64,000 bases of DNA. Source: Dehalococcoidia bacterium. GTDB taxonomy: Bacteria; Chloroflexota; Dehalococcoidia; Lucifugimonadales; UBA3495. Below the pieces are notes generated by a model. It did not search any database. It saw nothing but the letters and a program-made list of their open reading frames with translations, and was not told the origin of the DNA. A program made the position numbers and the translations under genes. The stretch spans positions 80,904-144,903 of the forward strand of contig DAOUIY010000008.1 in the NCBI GenBank assembly GCA_034423215.1. Reading direction: 5' to 3'. Of the stretch, positions 3,469 to 30,892 are shown piece by piece. The number at the start of each line of letters is the position of its first letter. Within the stretch, counting starts at the first letter, position 1.

Positions 3469-3492
3469 GCGCATTGTTAGCGATATGGGAGC

Positions 3493-4095
3493 ATGATAAA
3501 ATATTATCACCCTGTAATTATTCGGATATTTGATTTGCGCACCCTTCCCCCGTTTATCGCCCCTGTAGCCTGGTTGTCCCTGGTTTTGGTTGTCGCCCTG
3601 TTTGCCGCCGGAAGCCCGGTGCAGGAAGCCGTTTCCGCCAACGGGCGGGCCACCCTGATTTCCAGCCAGGAACAGGGTCCGTACCGGTTTGAAGTTTCCA
3701 TTCTTCCCAGCCGGGCGGTGGTGAACAATACGCACCTCAGCGTGCGCGTCATGTCCCTTGAGTCTGCGGAAACGCTTACACAGGCCCAGGTGAGGGTATC
3801 GGCCGAGGGCCCGGACGCTTCCAACGAATTTGGCCCGCTGATTGCCGACAACGACGTCCTGCCCCAGTTTTTCGAGACCACGCTGCCCTTTGACGTTCCG
3901 GGCCTGTGGCAGGTGAGCATCAGCGTCGCGACCGAGTTGGGCGATGAGACGGTGCTGGTTCCGATGGATGTGCGGGAAAGCCGCCCCATTAACCTGATCC
4001 TGGTGGCGGCCATAGCGGTGGCGGTTATCGCCGTTAGCATCTGGACCTATGACCGGATCAAGTCCGGCATTCGTGCACGCCGCTCCCGTGGATGA
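3493..4095 (+). CDS. hypothetical bitopic membrane protein (possible FixH/YtkA-like ectodomain)
   Basis: 200 aa. N-terminal hydrophobic segment, central beta-rich segment, C-terminal TM helix (LILVAAIAVAVIAVSIW) and a basic tail. The start codon is uncertain because the SD spacing is poor. Confidence 0.55.
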   Translation: MIKYYHPVIIRIFDLRTLPPFIAPVAWLSLVLVVALFAAGSPVQEAVSANGRATLISSQEQGPYRFEVSILPSRAVVNNTHLSVRVMSLESAETLTQAQVRVSAEGPDASNEFGPLIADNDVLPQFFETTLPFDVPGLWQVSISVATELGDETVLVPMDVRESRPINLILVAAIAVAVIAVSIWTYDRIKSGIRARRSRG

Positions 4096-4188
4096 GCCGC
4101 AACGCCCGTGGCGATTATGCGGCTTAGGGTTGGTCGGGCCGCCTGGAAGAGTCCAAGGACCCTATTTGTACGTATTAGTACCGTTAAG

Positions 4189-4608
4189 ATGACGCAGTTT
4201 CTCCGGCCCCTGGTTGCGATTGCCCTGTACGCGCTGCTGCTGCCGGTGGCGGGTCCCCTGCTGGACCACCACTATGCCGAGTGGCAGCACAATCACGCCC
4301 ACGTATATTTCGGCAATGGCCCCGAGGGTAGCCAGGGTTATCACCTGCACATTTACGACTGGCAGGGTAGCCACGGCCACCTGCCCACGTCCGAAACGGA
4401 CGACGGCAACGCGCCGGGAGGGCTGGCCTACTTTACCAACCAGGATGGCTCCGCCAACGGAATGGTTTATTCGCCCGTGGGACCCACCCTGGAGACACCC
4501 TGCTACCCCGACCCCGACGATTGCCCCTTGCTGACTCAGTTTGACGCCGCGGAGACCCGGCCCCCGGGAACCCGTCCGGCGCCTCCCCTGAGACCTCCGA
4601 CCGCATAA
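4189..4608 (+). CDS. hypothetical His-rich membrane-anchored protein
   Basis: N-terminal TM helix LRPLVAIALYALLLPVAG, then His-rich stretches HHYAEWQHNHAHVYF and GYHLHIYDWQGSHGHL. I chose the internal ATG at 4189; the ORF is open from 4108. Confidence 0.5.
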   Translation: MTQFLRPLVAIALYALLLPVAGPLLDHHYAEWQHNHAHVYFGNGPEGSQGYHLHIYDWQGSHGHLPTSETDDGNAPGGLAYFTNQDGSANGMVYSPVGPTLETPCYPDPDDCPLLTQFDAAETRPPGTRPAPPLRPPTA

Positions 4609-6452: not shown

Positions 6453-8684
6453 TCACTGGCCGAGGGCTCGTTCCAGGCCTCCCTCCCACGCCTCGCGAAT
6501 CTCGTCCAGGGCCACATCGGCGTAGCCTCCCAGCCGGAACCTGGGCCCTCCGGTCCATCCAATTTCCATCATCGGCACGTTCGTTTGGCCAGCCATGCGG
6601 CGAAGCTCCGGCAGGGCCTCCCGTTCCAGGGATACCACCACTCGCGACTGCCGTTCCCCGAAGAGGGCGCAGTCCCAGCGCGGCATGAGGATGTTCAAAG
6701 GCCTGGAACCCCGGAAACCGATTCCCCCCGGAATGGAGCACTCGGCCAGGGCCACCGCCAGGCCGCCATCCGAGCAGTCGTGGGCCGACGCAATTACCCC
6801 CGCCTGAATTCCCTGGCGGCACAGGGCCTGCACCCTGCTCTCCATCCCCAGGTCAATGGCGGGTTTGCCTTCCACCCGGCCGCAAATGACTTCCAGGTAT
6901 TCACTGCCCGCCAGGTCCGACGCCCGGGGCCGCAGCTTGCTCTGGCCCAGCAGGACCACGGGCATGCCCTCATCGGGGAAGTAGGACCGGGCGTGGCGGT
7001 TGACATCATCCAGCAATCCCAGGCCGCCAACAATCGGCGTGGGGTAGATGGCCTGTCCCTGGGACTCATTGTACAAACTGACGTTGCCGCTGATTACCGG
7101 CACGCCCAGGGCGCGACAGGCCCGGGCCATTCCCCGGATGCACCATTCAAGCTGGTAGTAGATGTCCGGCCGTTCCGGGTTGCCAAAATTCAGGCAGTCG
7201 GTCAGGGCCAGGGGTTCAGCCCCCACTGCGGACAGGTTGCGGCACACCTCGGCAACCGCTATTTGCCCGCCCCGGTAGGGGTCCAGGTAGCAGTACCGGC
7301 CATTCCCGTCAATGCTGAGGGCTATTGCCTTTTCCGTCCCATCCCTGCTGCCCTTGATTCTCAACACCGCAGCGTCGCAGCCCGGAACCACCACGGTATT
7401 GGTCTGGACCTGGTGGTCGTACTGGCGGTAAACGGAACGCTTGCTGGCTATGTTGGGAGCGGCCAGCAACCTGAGCAGCGCATCCACGACGACGACGCCA
7501 GGCGGGGGCGCATCTTCCAGGGTCAGATTCTGCCGCTTCAACTGTTCGGGAGAAGGCTGGCCCTTCAGGCGATACATGGGAGCTTCGGTCAGGTGTTTGA
7601 TGGGCAGTTGGGCGATGCGCTGGTCGCCGTCCAGAATGTGGGCCTCGGGACCCTCGATAACCTGCCCAATCTCCTGGCACGGCACGTCCCACTTGTCGAA
7701 TACTTTTCGCACCCGTCCTACGTGCTCGGGCTTCGTTACCAGGAGCATCCTTTCCTGGGACTCGGAGAGCATGACCTCGTAGCCGGTCATGCCCGCTTCC
7801 CGCCGGTTGACCTGGCCGATGTCCAACACTATCCCGCGCCGCCCCCGGTAGGCGGATTCTATGGCCGCGCTGGTAAGGCCCGCGGCGCCCAGGTCCTGGA
7901 TGCCGCTAACCAAACCGGTTTCCAGCGCCTCCAGGCAGGACTCAATCAGCACCTTTTCCAGGAACGGGTTGCCCACCTGCACCGTGGGCCGTAGTTCCTG
8001 TTCCTCTTCGAAGGTGCGGGAGGCCAGCCCCGAAGCGCCGTGAATCCCGTCCCGGCCCGTGCCGGCGCCCACCAGCAAAAGTACGCTGCCGGTATTGCCG
8101 GCGGCGGCGGTGGCCAGCTTATCGGTGGCAACCAGCCCGACGCACATGGCGTTTACCAGCGGGTTCTGGGAATAGGACTCGTCGAAGTAGATTTCCCCGC
8201 CGACGTCGGGCACGCCGATGCAGTTTCCGTACCAGGATATGCCCTCCACGACGCCGCGAAACAGGTATCGGTTGGCGGTGGAGTCCAGGGGGCCAAAGCG
8301 CAGGGAATTCAGTAGGGCGACGGGTCTCGCGCCCATGGCCAGGATGTCCCGGACAATGCCGCCGACGCCGGTGGCAGCCCCCTGCCTTGGCTCCACCGCC
8401 GATGGGTGGTTGTGGGACTCAACTTTGAACACTACTGCCATCCCGTCGCCGATGTCCACCGCCCCCGCGTTTTCCGCACCGGACTGGGAGAGCACGCGAC
8501 GGGAACGACTGGGGAAGAACTTCAGCAACGGCCGGGAATGCTTATAGCCGCAGTGTTCGCTCCACAGCGCTCCGAACATGCCCAGTTCAACCGGGTTGGG
8601 CTCCCGGTCCAGGCGGTCAACTATCATGTCGTACTCGGCCTGGCTCAGGGCAATTTCGTCCAGGACTTCTTTGGAAACGGGCAT
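6453..8684 (-). CDS. purL: phosphoribosylformylglycinamidine synthase subunit PurL
   Basis: 743 aa. FGALWSEHCGYKHSRPLL and AIR-synthase-like repeats, with the size typical of small-type PurL. Confidence 0.95.
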   Translation of the reverse strand: MPVSKEVLDEIALSQAEYDMIVDRLDREPNPVELGMFGALWSEHCGYKHSRPLLKFFPSRSRRVLSQSGAENAGAVDIGDGMAVVFKVESHNHPSAVEPRQGAATGVGGIVRDILAMGARPVALLNSLRFGPLDSTANRYLFRGVVEGISWYGNCIGVPDVGGEIYFDESYSQNPLVNAMCVGLVATDKLATAAAGNTGSVLLLVGAGTGRDGIHGASGLASRTFEEEQELRPTVQVGNPFLEKVLIESCLEALETGLVSGIQDLGAAGLTSAAIESAYRGRRGIVLDIGQVNRREAGMTGYEVMLSESQERMLLVTKPEHVGRVRKVFDKWDVPCQEIGQVIEGPEAHILDGDQRIAQLPIKHLTEAPMYRLKGQPSPEQLKRQNLTLEDAPPPGVVVVDALLRLLAAPNIASKRSVYRQYDHQVQTNTVVVPGCDAAVLRIKGSRDGTEKAIALSIDGNGRYCYLDPYRGGQIAVAEVCRNLSAVGAEPLALTDCLNFGNPERPDIYYQLEWCIRGMARACRALGVPVISGNVSLYNESQGQAIYPTPIVGGLGLLDDVNRHARSYFPDEGMPVVLLGQSKLRPRASDLAGSEYLEVICGRVEGKPAIDLGMESRVQALCRQGIQAGVIASAHDCSDGGLAVALAECSIPGGIGFRGSRPLNILMPRWDCALFGERQSRVVVSLEREALPELRRMAGQTNVPMMEIGWTGGPRFRLGGYADVALDEIREAWEGGLERALGQ

Positions 8685-8864
8685 AGCGCCTCTTCAGTTA
8701 CCGAAAAAGGAATGAATGGCAAAGGGAGAAACGAGGGTCGCCGGCAGGCATGGGCGGCAACGGCAATACGGCCGGGACCTTAGCAACCGCTACAGCCGGT
8801 TGACGGCGCAGAACCCGGTTTCCGGCCTACCCGCGACGCCTTGACCTTCACCTGGGAAGCCCCT

Positions 8865-11927: not shown

Positions 11928-12121
11928 TATCGCTTCTCTCTTATGTTCACTTTCTCCATTTTCCGCTCTTCATACCTTCGGTACACCTGAGCCGGCGATA
12001 ATTATGACAATTTGGGCGAAACTTTGCATAACTTGCAGTTCGGCCAAAGGGAACAGCAATGCGCTGCAATGCTAGGCTCTGGGAATAGGAAGATGTACGA
12101 AACAGTAGGAGAGGCGTTCCG

Positions 12122-12580
12122 ATGGACGTTCTGAGGATGCTGGTTTCCCTGGTACTGATTTTCTGCTCCGTTGTCGTGGCGCTGCAATTCGTGCTTGACC
12201 CCCTGTATGACGACATCGGGCAGGCTTCACTGGCGGTCTGGTACTACTTGGACATGCTGATGGCGGTCTCCATTGTCATCACTGTTGCCGTGCAGCTTCA
12301 GCGCAAGAGGGCGTCGGACCGCATCAGGGGCGACGGGCTGAACCGGGAACGGTTGGAGGCCAACGTGATGTTTTTCGCCTCCCTGCTGGTCGCGATCTGG
12401 TTCTTCCGCAACTGGTTCGATTTCCTCTCCTCGAGTCCCATCGGCGACCAATCCACGGCGACCTTTGTTATCTGGCTCATCCTGAACCCATTGCTGGCAA
12501 TACTGGTAGGCCTCACCGGAATAAGGCTCTGGCGTAATTCGGCTCCAGCCACCGGCTACATGAACACCGGCCGAACGTAG
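12122..12580 (+). CDS. hypothetical 4-TM membrane protein (paralog 1)
   Basis: 152 aa with an AGGAGAGG SD upstream. Shares VAxQFV, W(Y/D)YL and LQRKRA/FQRKRAF motifs and TM topology with the next gene. Confidence 0.7.
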   Translation: MDVLRMLVSLVLIFCSVVVALQFVLDPLYDDIGQASLAVWYYLDMLMAVSIVITVAVQLQRKRASDRIRGDGLNRERLEANVMFFASLLVAIWFFRNWFDFLSSSPIGDQSTATFVIWLILNPLLAILVGLTGIRLWRNSAPATGYMNTGRT

Positions 12581-12589
12581 GAGGTACGA

Positions 12590-13141
12590 ATGGGTGCATT
12601 CAGAAAAATGATGGCCGGCCTCCTGGCCGTCATTTCCGTGGCAGTAGCAGTCCAGTTCGTCATTGGCGAAATCTATAGCGAGTTCTGGTCCAACTCGCAC
12701 GTTATATGGGACTACCTGAACTGGCTCACCGGCCCCGGTCTGCTCGTTATTCTGTACTACCAGTTCCAGCGAAAGCGGGCCTTCGACGGGCAGAACCGGG
12801 ATGAAAGCGTCACCTTTGGCTACCTGTCGGCCAACCTGCTGCTCTTCACCAGCCTGTTCCTGACCCTCTGGTTCTTTGCCAACTGGTTTGAGGAGCTGAA
12901 CATCAACGAGAGCACGTCCACCACTGTACTGGGCTTCGTGTGGATTGTTTTCAACGCTTGCTTTATCGTGCTGGCCGCCATAACCGCCTGGCAGTTGTGG
13001 CGGCACGGCAGCGGCGACGGGACAGAAAACTCCGCCAACTCGCCGCAGACAACCATTAACGATTTTCCACCCGGCAACCCGGTAATCCAGGAAAACTCGA
13101 TAGTCCAGGAATCCGAGGGGCAGCTCACCCGCAGCCACTAA
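12590..13141 (+). CDS. hypothetical 4-TM membrane protein (paralog 2)
   Basis: 183 aa. AGGAGG SD 6 nt upstream of the ATG. Paralogous to 12122-12580, with an extra hydrophilic C-terminal tail. Confidence 0.7.
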   Translation: MGAFRKMMAGLLAVISVAVAVQFVIGEIYSEFWSNSHVIWDYLNWLTGPGLLVILYYQFQRKRAFDGQNRDESVTFGYLSANLLLFTSLFLTLWFFANWFEELNINESTSTTVLGFVWIVFNACFIVLAAITAWQLWRHGSGDGTENSANSPQTTINDFPPGNPVIQENSIVQESEGQLTRSH

Positions 13142-16223: not shown

Positions 16224-17156
16224 CTACCTCCCTTCCTCTTCAAGGGCCTGGCGCAGGGCGTCCTCCTCGACCCGCACTTCTACCCCGGCCCTCTCTTCCT
16301 GCAGCAGCATTGCCACCCGGGAGTCGCGGTGCCCCCACCCGCGGTTGATGGCCTCGGTCATCTCCGCCAGGGTTATGTTGGCCAGCCGCATGGGCACGTT
16401 GAACTCCCGTCCCACGCCCACGGCCAGGTCAACGTCCTTGCGCGCCAACTGCAGGGCAAAGTCCGGGGGATCAAAATTGCCCGTCAGCAAATGCTCCGCC
16501 AGCCCCTCGAAGGGCCCCCGGCGGCCCTGGGCGCCCCGCCTGACCGCTTGCCACAGGGCCAGCGGCTCCACTCCCGCCTTCACCCCCATGGTGAAAGTCT
16601 CCGCCAGCGCGGCCTGGATGATGTACCCGGAACAGTTGTGGACCAGCTTGGCCACCGAGCCACAGCCGATGGGGCCCACGTAGTAGGCCTTGTCGCCTAT
16701 GGAATCCAGAACCGTCTTGTAGCGGTCGAATAGCTCCCGGTCGCCGCCCACCCAGATGGCCAGGTTGCGGGAACGGGCGCCCCGCGGTCCGCCGCTAACC
16801 GGTGCGTCCAGCATGTGAATGCCATTTTCGGCGTAAACTTCGTGAATCCTGCGGATAACCGTTGGCGAATTGGTGCTGAGGTCAAAATAGACCTTGCCGG
16901 AACTCATCCCCTCCAGCAGACCCTCTTCCCCCAGGGCCACCGCTTCAACCTCCACCGGGCCCGGCAGCGAGGTGAATACTACCTCCGCTCCCTCGGCGAC
17001 CTCCCGGGGACTGTCCGCCCACTCGGCGCCGGCCTCCAGGTGCGGGGTAGCCGCCTCCCTGCGGATGTCGTGAACAATCATTTCGTTGCCGCCCTGCAGG
17101 CAGTTGTAGGCCATGCTTCCGCCCATGGTTCCCAGGCCTATGAATCCAACCTTCAT
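16224..17156 (-). CDS. NAD(P)-dependent beta-hydroxyacid dehydrogenase (3-hydroxyisobutyrate dehydrogenase family)
   Basis: MKVGFIGLGTMGGSMA Rossmann motif and a 6PGDH-type NAD-binding domain. Start set at the ATG at 17156 with GGAGG upstream; the ORF is open to 17228. Confidence 0.85.
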   Translation of the reverse strand: MKVGFIGLGTMGGSMAYNCLQGGNEMIVHDIRREAATPHLEAGAEWADSPREVAEGAEVVFTSLPGPVEVEAVALGEEGLLEGMSSGKVYFDLSTNSPTVIRRIHEVYAENGIHMLDAPVSGGPRGARSRNLAIWVGGDRELFDRYKTVLDSIGDKAYYVGPIGCGSVAKLVHNCSGYIIQAALAETFTMGVKAGVEPLALWQAVRRGAQGRRGPFEGLAEHLLTGNFDPPDFALQLARKDVDLAVGVGREFNVPMRLANITLAEMTEAINRGWGHRDSRVAMLLQEERAGVEVRVEEDALRQALEEEGR

Positions 17157-17295
17157 CGGTCCCTCCGTTCCCTTCAAGAGTGCGCGAGTGTGCGTCGCCG
17201 TGAAATGCCGCGCGTACAGGCGCCCCAATTATCCTGTAGCTTCCCGGCAGCCGCAAGGCCCCGTTTCCGATGGCCCGCTACCCGAACAGCCACCA

Positions 17296-17447
17296 GGTGG
17301 TTCATGGGGGCAGGGATGACGAAAAAATTATGAGCCCGCTCATGGTGAGCTTGTCGAACCATTTACTTGTAAAACTGCGAACGGGCGGCCCTTCGACCAA
17401 CTCCGGGTGAGCGGGAGTATTATCCATCAGTTTAAATGTGTGAACCG
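17296..17447 (-). repeat. B-type repeat (reverse orientation) with an A-module remnant
   Basis: gcccgctcatggtgagcttgtcgaacc ... cccttcgaccaactccgggtgagcgg ... ccatcagtttaaatgtgtgaacc, preceded by the remnant cagggatgacg. Confidence 0.8.
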
Positions 17448-17571
17448 TTAAGGCGCCGGCCGGGTCTCATTGACCGGGAAAGACTCTCTCGATACCCAAA
17501 TCGTACTTTCAACAATGTAGAATAATATTATATATCGGCAGTTGCGAAATTACTGGGGGAAGGGTAAGGGT

Positions 17572-18894
17572 ATGACTACATCAGCACAAGAATTGAGCCC
17601 TACCGACCGGAATCTCTGGAGCGCCATCGTGGGAGAAGCGCTGGCCAATCTGAAGTACAATGCCTATTCCCACAAGGCCCTGGAAGAGGGTTACCCCGAG
17701 GTGGCTCAAATCTTCCAGGAAGTGGCCGGAGCGGAAACCATTCACGGCCTCAACCACCTGCGGGTGGCAGGGGAGGTGAACGGAACCCTCGAAAACCTGA
17801 AATCGGTGATTGAAGGAGAGTCCAAGGAATTCAGCGTCATGTATCCCCGCATGGTCCGGGCCGCCCAGGCGGAGGGGCGCCAGGACGCCGCCGACTCCTT
17901 CTCCCTGGCCCTGGAGCGGGAACATCACCACCAGGCCATTTTTGCCCGTGCCCTGGAACAAATGGAGTCCCGGCAGAGCAGGTCCGTGAACGAACCAACG
18001 GCCGCCGCACCCCTCGTTGACGCCTTGCCAGCCCCCGGGCCGCCGGTTGACGACAACCCGTCCGTGGATACAGCGGCCGCCGGTGCGGGTGACGGCCTGT
18101 CGCCGGACCCGGACCAGGTAACGGTCAGCCCCGACCTGGCCCTGGGCGAGGGCGCAAACCGTATAAGCCTCGACACCTACGTGACCGCAACCAGGGAGGT
18201 GGACCAGGAGCGCTTCCGGGTGGCCAATCTCGGCCGGCTCAGGGAGGTGGTATTCGGCGCCCAGGACGGAATCCTCAGCACGGTAGCCCTGGTAACCTCG
18301 GTGGCGGTTGCCATCGGCGACGGCGCCACGGTGCTGGTGGCCGGCATGGCGGCAGCCCTGGCCGGCATGATTTCCATGGCCACCGGCGCCTACCTGGGTT
18401 CCAGGGCCGAGCAGGACGTCCAGCGTTTTGAAATTGACCGGGAAGCCAGGGAACTGGAGGAAAACCCGGCGGAGGAACTGGCCGAACTGGTGGTAATGCT
18501 CCAAAGAGAAGGCAGAAGTTTCGCCGAAGCCCACGCCCTGGCATCGGAAATCGCCCAGGACAAGGAGCTTTGGCTGAAAACGCTGGTGGAGAAGGAACTG
18601 GGCATCAGCATGGAGGATACCACCAGCCCGGTCAAGGACGCGCTGGTGATGGGAGTTTCCTTCGTAGTGGCCGCCCTTATTCCCATTGCGCCCTACCTGC
18701 TGTTCGCCGGGCCGACGGCAATCGCCGTTTCGGTGGCCGGCGCCCTGGTTGGACTTTTCATCCTCGGAATGGGCAAGGGCAGGCTGGTGAGCAAGTCTCC
18801 ATTGCTCCAGGGATTGGAAATCCTGGTAATAGGCGCAATTTCCGCCGCCATAGGCTTTGTCCTGGGCGACGTGGTGCCCAGGCTATTCGGCTAG
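17572..18894 (+). CDS. ferritin-like (rubrerythrin/erythrin) domain fused to a VIT1/CCC1 iron-manganese transporter domain
   Basis: The N-terminal half has diiron-type E..H pairs (GEALANLKY, AGAETIHG, EGESKE, ALEREHHH). The C-terminal half has the VIT1 signature VFGAQDGILSTVALVTSVA and five TM helices. Confidence 0.8.
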   Translation: MTTSAQELSPTDRNLWSAIVGEALANLKYNAYSHKALEEGYPEVAQIFQEVAGAETIHGLNHLRVAGEVNGTLENLKSVIEGESKEFSVMYPRMVRAAQAEGRQDAADSFSLALEREHHHQAIFARALEQMESRQSRSVNEPTAAAPLVDALPAPGPPVDDNPSVDTAAAGAGDGLSPDPDQVTVSPDLALGEGANRISLDTYVTATREVDQERFRVANLGRLREVVFGAQDGILSTVALVTSVAVAIGDGATVLVAGMAAALAGMISMATGAYLGSRAEQDVQRFEIDREARELEENPAEELAELVVMLQREGRSFAEAHALASEIAQDKELWLKTLVEKELGISMEDTTSPVKDALVMGVSFVVAALIPIAPYLLFAGPTAIAVSVAGALVGLFILGMGKGRLVSKSPLLQGLEILVIGAISAAIGFVLGDVVPRLFG

Positions 18895-19002
18895 GCCCAT
18901 CCGTGTATCGGGGCCTATCTCCCTTGACCGGCCCTTAGCCAGAATAAATGAAACCGGAAACTTCGTGCGGGTATGCGGGGAGCAAGACCTGTGGGCGGAC
19001 CG

Positions 19003-19028
19003 CCCTGCCGGTCGCAGGGATGCTTTTC
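19003..19028 (+). terminator. candidate rho-independent terminator after the VIT1 fusion gene
   Basis: CCCTGC-cggtc-GCAGGG followed by atgcttttcc. Confidence 0.4.
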
Positions 19029-19055
19029 CCAGACCCGACCAGCCGGGCGGTGGCT

Positions 19056-19958
19056 TCAGGAAAGCCTTTTATAGAAGGCGCGCACCGCTGCCAGGAAATC
19101 CGACGGGTTGTCGCCGGCTACCAGGTGGCCGGCGTTGGGAACGGTAACGGTGTCGCAGTCGGGGATTACCTGCTTCATCCGCTGCATGGTTTCATCGGCA
19201 AATATGTCGCTGTCGCCACCCCGGACCACCAGCGTGGGACAGGCAATCTTCGCTACCGCGTCCCATAGCTGCTCGGGAGTCCATGCCGGACCCTGCCTGC
19301 CGGGGGTGCGGAGGAGCTTGTCGTACTTCCACGACCACTTGCCGTCGCTCCGCTGCCGGATGCTGTACTTCAGGGCCCCCAGCGTTTGTTCCCGCGTCCG
19401 CCCGGTGTATTCCTGCACCCGGTCGGCGAATTCTTCAAAGCTGTCCAGTTCATCGGGCAGTTCGCGGAAGTTCTGTATCCGATTCCGGCCCCGGGACTGG
19501 GCTACCGGCCCCGTATCCACAATTACCAGCGACCTCAGGACTTCCGGGTGACGGGATGCCCAGACGTAGCTGTTGCGCCCTCCCATGGAGTGCCCCACAA
19601 GGTTGAATCCGGTAAGGCCCAGGGCCGACACAAAACCGTCTATATCGCCCTGGTGCGCTTCCAGCGTGTAGTCTCCGTCCGATGCCCAGTCGCTGTCGCC
19701 ATGACCCCGCTGGTCCAGGGCGATAATATGGTAGTCCTCGGAAAGCGCCAGGCTTACAAAGTCCCAGCTGTGAGCCTGCTGGGAACCGCCGTGCAGCATC
19801 ACTACCAGGGGATTCCCGGCCTCACCCCACTCCAGGTAATGGAAGTTCATTCCATTCACCAGGACGTCGCGGTCCGCGGGTTCATTCTCCTGGCTAAACC
19901 GGACGCCTTTCTGCCGCGCCGCCTGGTACAGGGTCAGTCCCAGGGAATGAGAAGCCAT
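19056..19958 (-). CDS. alpha/beta hydrolase fold protein
   Basis: 300 aa. HGGSQQAHSW oxyanion region, nucleophile elbow GHSMGG, C-terminal NAGHLV. Confidence 0.85.
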   Translation of the reverse strand: MASHSLGLTLYQAARQKGVRFSQENEPADRDVLVNGMNFHYLEWGEAGNPLVVMLHGGSQQAHSWDFVSLALSEDYHIIALDQRGHGDSDWASDGDYTLEAHQGDIDGFVSALGLTGFNLVGHSMGGRNSYVWASRHPEVLRSLVIVDTGPVAQSRGRNRIQNFRELPDELDSFEEFADRVQEYTGRTREQTLGALKYSIRQRSDGKWSWKYDKLLRTPGRQGPAWTPEQLWDAVAKIACPTLVVRGGDSDIFADETMQRMKQVIPDCDTVTVPNAGHLVAGDNPSDFLAAVRAFYKRLS

Positions 19959-20070
19959 AGCGGAAACCTCCTGAATATGACAGTCCGGCCGCGCCTGGCC
20001 GAAGGGTTGCGGTCAACATTCCCAATCATAAACCCCTAAGCCCGCCTGTCAAGCTGGACAGGGTCGCGGG

Positions 20071-20204
20071 CAGGGCAAACGCATTCTCCCACCTGGCCGG
20101 ATTCCCGAAGGTTAAGAGGGACCTGATGCATTACTTGCCAGGTTCGAGGTTCCCGCCTTCGCTGGAACGACGGACTCTCCAAAATTTAGAATGCGTTTGC
20201 CCTG
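20071..20204. repeat. MITE-like element with perfect 17-bp terminal inverted repeats
   Basis: CAGGGCAAACGCATTCT (20071-20087) and AGAATGCGTTTGCCCTG (20188-20204) are exact reverse complements. The interior carries degenerate copies of the A-module hairpins (attcccgaagg..., GTTCCCGCcttcGCTGGAAC). Confidence 0.85.
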
Positions 20205-28636: not shown

Positions 28637-29014
28637 GGGTCAACTTGCTTGAACTATGGACAATATTTCTGCTCACCATGGTCCTGTCGAAGGGCCGTTC
28701 CTTGATGGTCCAACAAGCTAATCATGAGCGGGCCACCGGGTTTGCTCATTGATGCAACGTAGGGGCGCGTGGACATGCGCCCCTACGGCCCGGCAATTTT
28801 GAATTGATGGTTGCAGCGGCCCAACCCGTCGTTCCCAAAAAGACGGGAACCTCGACCAACCCAACTCGTCGTTCCCGAGCAGGCGGGAACCTCGACCAAC
28901 CCAACCCGTCGTTCCCGAGCAGGCGGGAACCCCGACAGGCTGGAGTTAAGATTGCTGCCGTCGCAGGAATGACGGGTTAGTGCATTACCCATCTTTTCAA
29001 ACATGGTTAACCAC
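28637..29014 (+). repeat. most complete composite B-C-A element, with imperfect TIRs and a 3x tandem 40-nt hairpin unit
   Basis: Left end gggtcaacttgcttgaactatgg, right end ccatcttttcaaacatggttaaccac (imperfect inverted repeat). B arms, then C hairpin GTAGGGGCGC-gtggacat-GCGCCCCTAC. Three tandem units of cgtcgttccc....gggaacctcgaccaacccaac (28821-28935), then ATTGCTGCcgtcGCAGGAAT. Confidence 0.85.
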
Positions 29015-29047: not shown

Positions 29048-29680
29048 TCACGGCTGGGACAGTTCGGTGAATACGCGGCGCCATTCCTGGTCGTCTCCCT
29101 GTCCCATGCCCTCCCGGTAAGTTATCATCCCTTCCCGGTCAAAGGCGATTTTGGTGGACTGGATGGTCACACCCAGGTCCGCCATTACCTGGGCGGGGGC
29201 GGTGGCCACCGGCCAGGGATGGTCGCGTTCGGCCCGGTAGGTCTCCAGGGTGGTAATGTCCTCAACGATTCCCGGGTGGACTCCGATGGCATAGAAGTCC
29301 ACGTCCCCGGCGTATTGGGGGTAGATGTCCTTCATCCGCCGCAACTCGGCGGTGCAAACCGGTCAAACGGTGGCCCAGAAAAAGAGGAAGGTGGGCCGGC
29401 CCGAGTTCACCAGGTCAGCAGAGGTAACGGCGCTGCCGTCTGCCAGCGTCAGGGTAAAGTCGGGCACCTGGTAGCCCGGCTGGTTTCCAATATCGGCAAC
29501 CGGATCGGGGAAATCTGCGCCGGTAAGCACGTAGCCGGATCCAGGGGGTTCTGTATTGCCGCCGGACACGTCCATGCTCTCCCCGTTGGCAGCCAAATAG
29601 ATGGACACCCCCATTCCGATGGCGGGCACCAGCACCCCCAGCCCCAGCAACACCTTTCCGATCCAACCGTTCTTGTTCAT
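29048..29680 (-). CDS. membrane-anchored thioredoxin-fold (TlpA/AhpC-TSA redoxin-like) oxidoreductase, predicted selenoprotein with U-P-V-C motif (in-frame TGA at 29363-29365)
   Basis: Track ORFs 29363-29794 and 29048-29344 are in the same frame, separated only by TGA. The joined sequence reads ...GRPTFLFFWATV-U-PVCTAELRRMKDIY.... The TGA sits where the first redox Cys belongs. The paralog at 29831-30892 has the same arrangement and a hairpin lies 10 nt downstream. Start set at ATG 29680 because a strong terminator lies at 29744-29789. Confidence 0.8.
29336..29352 (-). promoter_or_regulatory. candidate bacterial SECIS stem-loop for the 29363-29365 UGA
   Basis: The mRNA reads UGA-ccgguuugca-CCGCCG-aguug-CGGCGG. 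This is a 6-bp all-GC stem with a 5-nt G/U-containing loop starting 10 nt after the UGA. A further A-U and C-G pair is possible across one bulge. The sequence is identical in the paralog. Confidence 0.65.
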
Positions 29681-29743
29681 AGTTGTTCCCACAGAATCCA
29701 AATGGACGACTTCGAGCAACTCGGCTATTGTTGCCCAGACCAG

Positions 29744-29789
29744 GAGTGAAAAGCAAGCCGGGGCAGGTTTCTGTCTGCCCCGGCTTGCT
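29744..29789 (-). terminator. strong rho-independent terminator between the two selenoprotein paralogs
   Basis: On the minus strand: AGCAAGCCGGGGCAG-acagaaac-CTGCCCCGGCTTGCT (perfect 15-bp stem) followed by TTTTCAC. Confidence 0.8.
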
Positions 29790-29830
29790 GGCATTCCAAC
29801 CTTTATTGGCTTATGAGGTCGGTTATTGCA

Positions 29831-30892
29831 TTACTGGGATGACAGGTCCGTGAACACCTGCTGCCAGACGTCAGGACCGCCGCCGCCAAAACCGTCCCGG
29901 TAGATTATGACGCCCCGGGAATCGAAGGCTATCTTGGTTGACTGGCTGGAGACGTTCAGGGCGGAAAGGGCCTCGCGTTCGTTGACGGGGTTGGCTACCG
30001 GCCAGGGAAACCCGTTTCTCTCTCGGTGGCTTTCCAGCCTGTTCACGTCCTCAACTGCCTTGACGTATGTACCCACCGCATAAAAGTTGACCTGGTCCGC
30101 ATATTCGGGGTAAATCTCCTTCAGCCGCCGCAACTCGGCGGTGCAGACCCCTCAAGTGGTGGCGGTAAAGAACAGGAAGGTCGGTTTGCCCTGCTCCACC
30201 AGGCCGGCGGTCGAAACCGTATCTCCGCCGAACAGTTCGAGGGTAATGTCCGGGATGCGGTTGCCCACCTTGTTGCCCACCTCGGGCAGGGGTTCCTGGG
30301 GAACCGGCGTAGGCGCGTCCGTGGGCGTGGGTTCCGCGGCCTGGGTCGGCGCCGGGGCGGAGGTGGCGGTAGGGGCCGGCTGTACCACGGGAGCCTCAGC
30401 AGGAGTTGCTGCTGTTGGCTGAGCTACTGCCGGCTGGGCCTCCGTCGCCTGGGTGGGCTCGGCGGCCGGCTCAGGCTGGGCAACTACGACCACGGCCAGG
30501 GCAGGGTTTTCAGACGCCGGCGGGTCTGCTACGGCTGCAGGGGTATTTTCCGCCGCCTGGCTCATTTCCTCGACGGACGGTGAATCCTGGACTGCTCCGG
30601 CAACCACCGGCTGGGTTTCGACCGGTGCGGCCTGCTGGGAGGACGTTGCCGCCAGGGGTTGACTCGCTTCCTGGGGCGCGGTCTGCTCAACCGCGGTGCC
30701 CAGGGATTCGGACTGCGCGCCGGTAGCCGGCTCCGATTGGCGGCTTTCTCCGGCGGCCGGGGCCACTTGTTCCGGGGGGCTGTCGGACTGGCAAGCCACG
30801 CTGGCTACCAGCAGCAGGCCAACCAATCCGGGGACGGCCCAGCGCAGCTTGCCGCGCAACCTCCGGCCCCCCGCGGGGAAGGTTAATTTCAT
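29831..30892 (-). CDS. lipoprotein with a long low-complexity linker and a thioredoxin-fold redoxin-like domain, predicted selenoprotein with U-G-V-C motif (in-frame TGA at 30152-30154)
   Basis: Track ORFs 30152-30892 and 29831-30133 are in frame across the TGA. The junction reads ...GKPTFLFFTATT-U-GVCTAELRRLKEIY.... Lipobox LLVASVAC, then about 170 aa of Ala/Pro/Gln/Thr/Glu-rich linker. The C-terminal domain aligns with gene A on both sides of the TGA. Confidence 0.8.
30125..30141 (-). promoter_or_regulatory. candidate bacterial SECIS stem-loop for the 30152-30154 UGA
   Basis: The mRNA reads UGA-ggggucugca-CCGCCG-aguug-CGGCGG. The hairpin and the 10-nt spacing match 29336-29352. Confidence 0.65.

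Follow-up and report, generated by a model that had tools for sequence, protein, structure and literature searches.

Selenoproteins that carry a UxxC or UxxU motif (U denoting selenocysteine, Sec) in an AhpC-TSA domain (PF00578) were predicted as 'Prx-like thiol:disulfide oxidoreductases' (Kryukov & Gladyshev, 2004) and appear as 'Prx-like 1' in the GOS selenoproteome, with WP_010940744.1 from Geobacter as the reference member of the family. The predicted exported DsbA-like, DsbG-like and thiol:disulfide interchange selenoproteins resemble the proteins considered here in that they combine a thioredoxin fold with UxxC and are presumed to have a redox role in the periplasm or otherwise outside the cytoplasm, but differ in their Pfam assignment (PF01323, NF041057 and PF13098 versus AhpC-TSA/Redoxin here). 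ResA, TlpA and CcmG (DsbE) offer a further comparison, as they share with the present family the fold with its active site at the start of helix alpha-1, the position outside the membrane to which they are tethered (tethering being predicted for the present family) and the motif context F-[FW]-A-T-W-C-x-x-C, which is found in the family's Cys forms. Literature searches returned nothing on selenoproteins in connection with SAR202 or on selenoproteins of sponge Chloroflexota.

The window, that is the whole 64-kb stretch of DNA that was analysed, contains two genes of this kind in tandem, gene A (29048..29680, minus strand) and its upstream paralog gene B (29831..30892, minus strand). With a probability of roughly 0.88, both encode outward-facing, membrane-tethered selenoproteins with one ResA/TlpA-like domain each, in which an in-frame UGA is read as Sec. 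The initial annotation had proposed Sec at the in-frame UGA of a thioredoxin-fold UxxC oxidoreductase, and this proposal is supported by the conserved TGA, its alternation with Cys codons, a hairpin downstream, coding constraint and the fold.

Translation together with the Pfam domain defines gene A as a complete coding sequence of 210 codons including Sec, which starts at the ATG at 29680, in agreement with the starts of its orthologs about 104 codons ahead of the TGA, and ends at a terminator TGA at 29048-29050. The minus-strand translation of 29048-29680 contains a single internal stop (...RPTFLFFWATV*PVCTAELRRMKDIYP...) and reproduces the previously given sequence exactly; the strand itself had been omitted in the initial annotation. 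The internal UGA, the predicted Sec codon of the motif U-P-V-C, lies at 29363..29365 on the minus strand and reads 'tca' on the plus strand. When U was replaced by C, residues 69-188 matched AhpC-TSA (PF00578) with 50.2 bits (cut-off 26) and Redoxin (PF08534) with 48.7 bits. The match runs from profile position 2 to 123 of 124; a single domain thus extends across both open reading frame pieces, in agreement with the initial annotation. This thioredoxin-fold domain of the AhpC-TSA/Redoxin, TlpA/ResA-like type, also recovered by PDB profile hits, occupies 29117..29476 on the minus strand. Gene B comprises 353 codons including Sec, ends with TAA and encodes a lipobox-like signal, then a long linker rich in Pro, Ala, Thr and Gln, and finally an AhpC-TSA domain as in gene A (PF00578, 40.3 bits, cut-off 26). 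Its in-frame UGA, predicted to specify Sec in U-G-V-C, is located at 30152..30154 on the minus strand.

A PDB profile search returned ResA, DsbE/CcmG and TlpA-like chains with E values of 1e-14 to 1e-9, in which U is aligned with the N-terminal Cys of the CxxC motif; peroxiredoxin chains followed as weak hits (E = 1e-5 to 1e-3). An AF2 model of a Cys-containing homolog (P0005, not gene A itself) had a pLDDT of 90.7 and found its best PDB matches in ResA, with TM scores of 0.84-0.90 and an rmsd of 1.6-1.8 Å. Judged from these alignments and from the modelled Cys homolog, the predicted fold of gene A is ResA/TlpA-like with U in place of the first Cys of CxxC. Two placements of the UGA had originally been considered: the N-terminal Cys of CxxC agrees with the PDB profile alignment, whereas the Thr of a peroxiredoxin TxxC motif is at odds with both the motif and the TlpA/ResA-like family.

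The family differs from ResA, TlpA and CcmG (DsbE) in several respects. Sec takes the place of the nucleophilic Cys, Sec-containing members mostly have Thr, Ile, Val or Tyr instead of the Trp ahead of it, and the cis-proline is replaced in the family. In the column of the Pro of the ResA 'L-P-T' motif, the 83 sequences have mostly Ser (47), Ala (14) or Thr (12), with four each of Asp and Pro; genes A and B both have Ser, and the family pattern is S/A/T followed by Thr-Lys, in which the Lys, two residues after the cis-proline column, hardly varies (72 of 83). Since the cis-proline is replaced, the chemistry may differ from that of ResA and TlpA. Scores with NCBIfam models were far below the cut-offs (ResA 37.8 bits versus 170, DsbE 29.3 versus 123.15), and no model reached its cut-off. 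Genes for resB, resC, ccm or ccdA, or for a reductant of the CcdA/DsbD type, were absent from the window and from the conserved neighbourhoods. Orthology with ResA or DsbE/CcmG was rejected on account of these scores and of the missing cytochrome c maturation context.

Selenoprotein families are named in the field by Pfam domain plus motif. By this rule (PF00578, UxxC) gene A is a predicted 'Prx-like thiol:disulfide oxidoreductase' selenoprotein, thus a kind that is already known and that is expanded into tandem copies in SAR202/Dehalococcoidia. It agrees with the described family in exceeding the PF00578 gathering cut-off, in the Sec as first residue of UxxC, in the existence of Cys homologs and in a SECIS hairpin right after the UGA. 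Predictions of thioredoxin-fold selenoproteins with UxxC, some of them presumably exported, go back two decades, and no concept is changed by the present findings.

Among the alternatives, the most serious accepts Sec insertion and questions the function: the protein might be an extracytoplasmic peroxidase with selenenic-acid chemistry of the Prx/GPx type, or a binder or carrier of metal or chalcogen, rather than a disulfide reductase. AhpC-TSA as top Pfam match would fit this reading, as would the loss of the cis-proline typical of CxxC reductases together with the conserved Lys, on a strand which we take, from our own alignment by eye, to correspond to the strand of the catalytic Arg in peroxiredoxins. 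The missing cytochrome maturation and CcdA genes nearby point in the same direction, and so does a marginal and partial Pfam match to SCO1/SenC over the motif region (23.8 bits versus a cut-off of 22.8, profile positions 2-68 of 134). Against this, the peroxiredoxin motif PxxxTxxC is absent; the observed F-F-x-A-T-x-U-x-x-C, with Sec as the first residue of the pair, corresponds to the TlpA-type F-W-A-T-W-C-x-x-C with W-C changed, and a peroxiredoxin assignment was rejected for this reason. ResA, DsbE, Etrx and SdbA are the neighbours in the PDB by sequence and by fold, and peroxiredoxins rank far behind them. A SCO1/SenC copper chaperone was likewise rejected, as Sco proteins require CxxxC and a His, and the alignments show UxxC spacing and no invariant His. 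A function other than disulfide reduction is therefore considered unlikely, and a reductase remains the preferred reading.

The membrane-tethered position is predicted from the N termini. In gene A a hydrophobic segment, V10-A31 (29588..29653, minus strand), is preceded by Lys3 and Lys9 and is predicted to act as a signal anchor, which would leave the N terminus inside and the domain outside. A hydrophobic 17-mer (Kyte-Doolittle mean >2) is found at the N-terminal place in all gene A orthologs, and nearly all family members have N-terminal hydrophobic segments. The signal-anchor pattern is that of the gene A type; in gene-B-type and deeper-branching members the hydrophobic segment is followed by a lipobox-like [AG]-C. 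In gene B itself the putative signal peptide (30791..30892, minus strand) ends in the lipobox-like ...LLVASVA-C34, as deduced from the sequence. Periplasmic formate dehydrogenase-N and [NiFeSe] hydrogenase are classic extracytoplasmic selenoproteins. The initial view that such a location is unusual for bacterial selenoproteins was overstated, DsbA-like, DsbG-like and thiol:disulfide interchange selenoproteins having been predicted in the literature as well.

Relatives were collected by a DNA scan of genomes; a word-indexed protein search with the joined sequence returned three matches only. The resulting set of 95 domains derives from the window and from 60 Dehalococcoidia/SAR202/Chloroflexota loci, with amino acid identities down to about 45%. 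Complete chromosomes, OZ244136.1 and OZ247428.1 among them, also carry orthologs. The codon aligned with the UGA of gene A is TGA in 62 of 63 primary matches and in 92 of the 95 domains when tandem paralogs are included. The remaining three, the protein of locus L050 and the first domains of L001 and L002, have TGT or TGC. In a library clustered at 50% identity, 36 of 38 full-length relatives have Cys in W-C-P-x-C. Cys- and Sec-containing homologs thus align at the UGA position, the outcome of a check that had been proposed from the outset. Tandem arrays of up to four genes occur in the family, as do two-domain fusions of the type Sec plus Sec or Cys plus Sec.

Immediately downstream of the UGA lies a SECIS-type hairpin. 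In gene A (29336..29352, minus strand) it reads CCGCCG-AGUUG-CGGCGG and starts 10 nt after the UGA; the hairpin of gene B (30125..30141, minus strand) is identical in sequence. It consists of 17 nt with a G+C-rich stem of 6 bp and an A-G-U-U-G loop in which G-U-U is invariant, and the distance from UGA to loop is 16 nt. RNAalifold recovered the structure on its own. Among 62 sequences (59 distinct) used for covariation analysis, 97.5% of the stem cells are paired, and compensatory double changes (CG/GC, CG/UA, GC/UA) affect four of the six pairs. The covariation score was 0.476 versus 0.163 in shuffled alignments, none of 500 shuffles reaching the observed value, and slid partners scored at most 0.119. 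At least four of six pairs, and mostly all six, can form in each of the 92 TGA forms, versus none or one in all three Cys forms. Synonymous variation is suppressed in the hairpin codons, where third-position entropy is 0.63 as compared with 1.36-1.43 in the flanks: Glu is always encoded by GAG and the loop Leu by TTG or TTA, whereas 80 of 90 sequences use CTG or CTC for the Leu at codon -7.

Bacterial SECIS elements of the E. coli fdhF type and of the bSECISearch consensus resemble this hairpin in two ways: they too follow the UGA directly on its 3' side within the coding sequence, and their small apical loop contains G. With its stem of 6 bp the family hairpin is, by comparison, very short; a bulged U is missing, and covariation lends no support to a lower stem. 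The minimal fdhF element, an upper stem-loop of 17 nt, is spaced 11 nt from its UGA; the bSECISearch consensus permits 16-37 nt between UGA and loop. A search with the Rfam models, in gathering as well as in E-value mode, had been suggested as a check and gave no match to a SECIS family, only spurious hairpin matches in the region; the SECIS models in Rfam cover few lineages only.

Decoding of the UGA as Trp, Cys or Arg, be it by structure-stimulated read-through with a near-cognate or suppressor tRNA or by a partial reassignment in the lineage, appears very improbable. Downstream hairpins can stimulate read-through in general, and neither selA, selB and selD nor tRNA-Sec was found in the 82 kb inspected (the window plus about 9 kb on each side) of the 287-kb scaffold. 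The tRNA search was performed with ARAGORN on the window, the 60 loci and the two scaffold extensions, without a tRNA-Sec being detected; SelA, SelB and SelD were sought by Pfam annotation of about 40 open reading frames of the window and in the gene tables of the extensions. The AIRS-domain protein encoded at 6456-8693 is PurL. Several observations speak against decoding by another amino acid. TGA terminates at least 12 open reading frames of the window with Pfam domain matches, among them recQ, purL, 6PGD and hisF, in addition to gene A itself, which bears out the earlier statement that it serves as an ordinary stop elsewhere. The recoding falls precisely on the position of the nucleophilic Cys of CxxC, and homologs with another residue there invariably have Cys. 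Genes for unrelated selenoproteins of the UGSC family (S-UGA-G-S-C), with a GU-loop hairpin of their own, adjoin the present family in 11 loci, and at the level of the class, Dehalococcoidia MAGs with 46-49 selenoprotein genes figure in BSepDB among the species with a Sec pathway.

Still less probable is the production of two polypeptides, with an N-terminal piece ending at the TGA, either functional in truncated form or accompanied by a C-terminal piece restarted at TTG (+7) or ATG (+10). This corresponds to the annotation provided by gene callers, and an in-frame TTG or ATG is indeed found 7-10 codons past the TGA in many members. The sequence between TGA and restart, x-x-Cys-x-Ala-Glu, is however conserved as protein. 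The resolving Cys at +3, which precedes any possible restart codon, is invariant, and its codon varies synonymously (69 TGC, 21 TGT). Codon +10 is Leu (CTG, TTG, CTC or CTA) in 52 of 90 members, so ATG is not conserved there. The split would moreover cut one thioredoxin fold at its active site with loss of the resolving Cys, and the full-length Cys homologs are single chains. The entropy pattern over codon positions is alike upstream and downstream of the UGA, and the codons 3' of it are under purifying selection at the protein level.

The possibility that the TGA arose by a recent nonsense mutation, or from miscalling of a TGC/TGT Cys codon, as a lone in-frame stop in an otherwise intact gene and the frameshifts in one relative (L003, from an assembly of 2x coverage) might suggest, is effectively refuted by its occurrence at one column in 92 of 95 domains from some 60 genomes, by its presence in both paralogs of the window and by the selection acting on the downstream codons. 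In addition, 2288 nt of the locus are identical to an ENA scaffold (ERZ23495130, scaffold_102, 287,390 bp), on which the window occupies approximately 104,751-168,750, and the TGAs of both genes are retained in two strain variants that were found in other samples and are distinguished by SNPs. The in-frame TGA of gene A is neither due to chance nor an assembly error.

For Sec insertion, export topology and reductase chemistry, including substrate and reductant, we infer the following course. A ribosome arriving at the UGA would have the hairpin 10 nt ahead, a gap approximately equal to the presumed length of mRNA that it occludes, and the hairpin would recruit SelB carrying Sec-tRNA(Sec). Sec would then be inserted as the first residue of U-x-x-C at the N-terminal end of helix alpha-1. 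The protein would be exported and then held at the membrane, in the case of gene A by the N-terminal signal anchor and in that of gene B by the lipoprotein-type signal and the long linker. Outside, the exposed selenolate could attack a disulfide or another oxidized sulfur or selenium species of the substrate, the resulting selenenylsulfide would be resolved by the C-terminal Cys, and a membrane electron shuttle might re-reduce the U-x-x-C pair.

A near-obligate use of Sec in an oxidoreductase that is predicted to face outward and that is duplicated in tandem suggests investment of selenium in cell-surface redox chemistry. The present clade appears to differ from the Prx-like selenoproteins described before: it is predicted to be membrane-anchored or of the lipoprotein type, lacks the cis-proline (S/A/T-T-K), contains Sec almost always and forms arrays and fusions. 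It is conceivable, albeit doubtful, that we are dealing with a distinct, Sec-dominant, exported and membrane-tethered ResA-like clade specific for SAR202/Dehalococcoidia that has not been described as such, marked by Ser-Thr-Lys in place of the cis-proline, arrays of up to four genes, fusions with two Sec or Cys plus Sec and a minimal SECIS of 17 nt. If so, aerobic marine and sponge-associated Chloroflexota would possess a selenium-based extracytoplasmic redox or antioxidant system, with a chemistry unlike that of classical CxxC reductases.

As the initial annotation had anticipated, gene callers split gene A, which occurs in the public collection as unnamed fragments. In public data generally, gene A, gene B and some 90 relatives exist solely as half-genes without a name, and no NCBIfam model applies at its cut-off; genome pipelines will therefore go on annotating them as fragments or pseudogenes. 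For Dehalococcoidia the hairpin alignment yields a minimal SECIS (6 bp plus AGUUG, 10 nt from the UGA) that is unusually clean and backed by covariation. A lineage-specific SECIS model could be built on it and help selenoprotein calling in the SAR202 bacteria, which are very abundant and live in the deep ocean and in association with sponges.

A scan of the window for in-frame TGAs with coding-like flanks returned genes A and B and otherwise antisense shadows only. Two same-frame pairs of open reading frames, one interrupted by TGA (3481-4605) and the other by TAG (12089-13138), were rejected as recoded genes because they are separate genes with starts of their own. Genes for G6PD, 6PGD and PGI upstream and PcrA downstream are syntenic in the closest clade only (17-20 loci); since the neighbours differ in other clades, no function is deduced from them. 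The stretch from the stop of gene B to the start of gene A contains a long perfect hairpin followed by UUUUC (29743..29797, minus strand), which resembles a terminator and surfaced in the Rfam search as a spurious match to mir-3926.

Gene A (29048-29680, minus strand) translates as a frame of 210 codons that a single stop interrupts, ...SGRPTFLFFWATV*PVCTAELRRMKDIYP..., and this stop is a TGA (29365..29363, minus strand). With the stop replaced by cysteine, the product matches the Pfam families AhpC-TSA (50.2 bits, cut-off 26 bits) and Redoxin (48.7 bits) over residues 69-188. As positions 2-123 of the 124-position AhpC-TSA profile are covered, a single thioredoxin-type domain runs across both open reading frame pieces, in line with the initial annotation, which had described one frame for a redoxin/TlpA-like domain split by a UGA. 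Gene B, a paralog of the same family and architecture located directly upstream (30892..29831, minus strand), carries an in-frame TGA (30154..30152, minus strand) in the motif T-U-G-V-C, U being predicted selenocysteine (Sec). That TGA is an ordinary stop elsewhere had likewise been stated correctly: it terminates at least 12 Pfam-matched ORFs in the window and gene A itself (29048-29050). The intergenic stretch from the stop of gene B to the start of gene A contains a perfect long hairpin (AGCAAGCCGGGGCAG ... CUGCCCCGGCUUGCU) followed by UUUUC (29743-29797, minus strand), which is terminator-like, so that the two genes may be transcribed separately. The same hairpin gave a spurious mir-3926 match in Rfam.

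The reading of the gene A TGA as an error or as the mark of a pseudogene is effectively ruled out by strain variants that carry it and by its conservation in 92 of 95 domains. The 95-residue C-terminal fragment of gene A is found verbatim on eight public contigs. One of these, metagenome scaffold_102 of ENA ERZ23495130 (NGUY21-1_SAMN17524321; 287,390 bp), is evidently where the window comes from: positions 1-64000 of the window fall at about 104751-168750, and the two are identical over the 2288 nt compared. Close strain variants are present in at least two further samples of this series; two such variants show scattered SNPs and keep both TGAs. A profile-guided homolog scan, in which each species was represented by a single genome, gave 57 loci, all from Dehalococcoidia, SAR202 or Chloroflexota MAGs, the closest being Chloroflexi MAG SB0662_bin_28 with 83% identity. 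The aligned codon is TGA in 62 of 63 primary members and TGT in one (locus L050); the figure of 92 of 95 is reached once tandem paralogs and fused domains of the same loci are counted. All three exceptions are Cys codons, residing in L050 and in the first domains of two-domain proteins in L001 and L002; at the UGA position, TGA forms and Cys-containing homologs are aligned.

Two separate polypeptides are what automated annotation makes of these genes. Gene callers break them at exactly the UGA, as had been foreseen, and in the public protein collection the family genes appear solely as fragments without a name. By our own count, fragments of 90-100 residues make up about 58 of the 150 best relatives in a 50%-identity protein library, and such fragments start 6 or 9 residues past the Sec column in the curated alignment; about 41 of the 150 are full-length Cys forms with the motif W-C-P-x-C. 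Two independent genes are, however, argued against by the codon-position entropies of 90 distinct sequences. Mean values for positions 1, 2 and 3 are 0.63, 0.56 and 1.36 over the 15 codons before the TGA and 0.64, 0.47 and 1.16 over the 21 codons after it, that is, the protein-coding signature is the same on either side. The resolving cysteine at +3, which precedes any possible restart codon (TTG at +7, ATG at +10), is invariant as an amino acid while its codon varies (TGC 69, TGT 21), and codon +10 encodes leucine in 52 of the 90 members, which also speaks against two genes.

As to decoding of the UGA as something other than Sec, a hairpin of the type that directs Sec insertion (SECIS) follows the codon. 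Genes A and B share the same 22 nt behind U-x-x, which form CCGCCG-AGUUG-CGGCGG, beginning 10 nt after the UGA. RNAalifold predicted the same hairpin, and nothing else, from 62 homologous sequences. Among 59 distinct sequences, 97.5% of the hairpin cells are paired, and double changes that preserve pairing (CG to GC, CG to UA, GC to UA) occur at four of the six pairs. At 0.476, the covariation score lies above the 0.163 ± 0.020 of shuffles, none of 500 reaching the observed value, and it does not exceed 0.119 when the partners are slid by 1-3 columns as a control. Typically, a synonymous change accompanies a non-synonymous one, as with GCC to GCU (Ala) and CGG to CAG (Arg to Gln), and compensatory pairing of this kind cannot be explained by protein constraint. 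Third-position entropy drops to 0.63 in the hairpin codons versus 1.36-1.43 in the flanks. In all 90 sequences the loop glutamate is encoded by GAG, and the loop leucine by TTG (83) or TTA (7), whereas leucine at codon -7 is CTG or CTC in 80 of 90. At least four of the six pairs, mostly all six, form in each of the 92 TGA forms, compared to none or one in each of the three Cys forms.

The minimal SECIS of E. coli fdhF is a 17-nt stem-loop 11 nt from the UGA with a loop G-U that is contacted by SelB, and the family hairpin resembles it in size and distance. It furthermore agrees with the published description of bacterial SECIS elements as stem-loops that directly follow the UGA and have a G in their small apical loop, and its start at +11 agrees with the approximately 11 nt of mRNA occluded by the ribosome. 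None of the SECIS models in Rfam matches the hairpin, which is unsurprising because these models are lineage-specific. The bases flanking the UGA (29366-29368 and 29362, minus strand) are biased in the 90 aligned homologs: the preceding base is U in 86, the preceding codon ACT in 61, and the following base is C, G or A but never U. Judged by termination contexts in E. coli, such a bias would be consistent with selection against efficient RF2 termination.

Genes for tRNA-Sec, SelA, SelB and SelD were found neither in the 64-kb window nor in about 9 kb more per side on the scaffold, an absence that means little as only 82 kb of a several-megabase genome are covered; nor are they present in the flanks of the 60 related loci. 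In 11 loci (L049, L051-L060), the TlpA-like Sec gene adjoins, on the opposite strand, a gene for a member of the well-known, unrelated UGSC selenoprotein family (PF24696; for example L060:3440-4174, minus strand, S-TGA-G-S-C). The UGSC genes have a hairpin of their own (CGUGCA-GUG-UGCACG, beginning 13 nt after the UGA) and are likewise broken up by gene callers. In BSepDB, which takes in only species with a Sec pathway, the ten bacteria richest in selenoprotein genes include two Dehalococcoidia MAGs (49 and 46 genes). Together with the UGSC neighbors, these entries lend indirect support to Sec decoding in the lineage. The conserved TGA, the covarying hairpin and the coding constraint bear out the earlier prediction of Sec in a thioredoxin-fold oxidoreductase and, at the level of sequence, identify genes A and B as a real selenoprotein gene pair.

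In a search of the PDB, the family profile matched ResA, DsbE/CcmG and uncharacterized TlpA-like thioredoxin proteins (E = 1e-14 to 1e-9) with the Sec column aligned to the first cysteine of CxxC, while peroxiredoxins appeared only at E = 1e-5 to 1e-3. Thus, the UGA does occupy the redox-motif position of the fold, of the two alternatives originally offered the CxxC cysteine holds, and the peroxiredoxin TxxC motif is to be dropped. P0005, a full-length Cys homolog 48% identical to gene A over residues 107-208 (positions 1-102 of a 104-residue query starting right after the Sec codon), was modeled in its place. The AlphaFold model (mean pLDDT 90.7) puts the first cysteine immediately before helix 86-102, and its best PDB matches are ResA structures (TM 0.84-0.90, normalized to target; rmsd 1.6-1.8 Å), followed by pneumococcal Etrx lipoproteins, SdbA and mycobacterial DsbE/DsbF. 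Cys forms have the TlpA-type context F-[FW]-A-T-W-C-P-x-C; in Sec forms the tryptophan position is usually Thr, Ile, Val or Tyr. Gene A starts with lysine-rich residues and a 22-residue hydrophobic segment, which we read as a putative signal anchor, and gene B with a signal with a lipobox-like end (...VASVA-C), followed by a low-complexity, Pro/Ala/Thr/Gln-rich linker of about 170 residues. Both tethering types recur across the family, and membrane topology is predicted from the sequence.

The classical cis-proline opposite the active site of thioredoxin folds is absent. Of 83 sequences, 47 have Ser, 14 Ala, 12 Thr, 4 Asp and 4 Pro in the column of the ResA L-P-T proline. Thr and then Lys, the latter nearly invariant (72/83), come next, so that the family signature reads Q-S-T-K (29147-29158 in gene A); the pattern is common to Sec and Cys forms. 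Furthermore, the family scores far below the cut-offs of both the ResA and DsbE NCBIfam models, and no genes for cytochrome c maturation or CcdA/DsbD lie nearby. We therefore place it in the TlpA-like structural family and not among ResA or CcmG orthologs. Neighbor conservation in the closest clade extends to G6PD on the upstream side and PcrA/UvrD on the downstream side (the latter convergent in the window); neighbors differ in other clades. We propose a reductase mechanism with moderate confidence; its main functional rival is a peroxidase-like or other chemistry.

Selenoprotein families are named by Pfam domain plus Sec motif, and genes A and B are accordingly 'Prx-like thiol:disulfide oxidoreductase' (PF00578, UxxC/UxxU), a family that has been predicted since 2004 and is present in Deltaproteobacteria and Clostridia; 'Prx-like 1' is abundant in the GOS marine metagenomes (225 Sec and 2,740 Cys sequences). 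An extracytoplasmic location, initially thought unusual for bacterial selenoproteins, is in itself not new, since presumed exported UxxC selenoproteins (DsbA-like, DsbG-like, thiol:disulfide interchange protein) are already listed. Our literature search found no paper on selenoproteins of SAR202 or sponge Chloroflexota, and BSepDB (2026) may already contain these genes. The family is possibly a distinct subfamily, with Sec dominance, the missing cis-proline, tandem and fused copies and a minimal SECIS as features of modest interest. Its closest clade carries the gene B/gene A pair. Tandem rows of four Sec paralogs occur in the genomes L005 and L007, and three Sec domains are found in L049 and likewise in L052, where two of the three share a reading frame and so form a two-Sec protein. 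The lipoprotein encoded in L001 and L002 combines a Cys-type (WCPIC) domain with a Sec-type (W-U-PSC) domain behind it. L001 also encodes a 1026-residue ComEC-type competence protein with C-terminal AhpC-TSA/Redoxin/thioredoxin domains (17023-20103).

A 40-nt tandem repeat (2.9 copies, 90% matches; 28820-28936) separates the stops of gene A and of the convergent pcrA/uvrD; each unit contains the inverted repeat GTTCCCG-AGCAGG-CGGGAAC, and the repeat may be a REP-like or terminator element. Recoding seems not to apply to two same-frame ORF pairs on the plus strand, 12089-13138 (single TAG between, 12578-12580; tandem paralogous membrane proteins) and 3481-4605 (single TGA between, 4093-4095); in each pair the two ORFs appear to be distinct genes, each with a start of its own. 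The window also encodes a fusion of rubrerythrin and the iron transporter VIT1 (17521-18891, plus strand).
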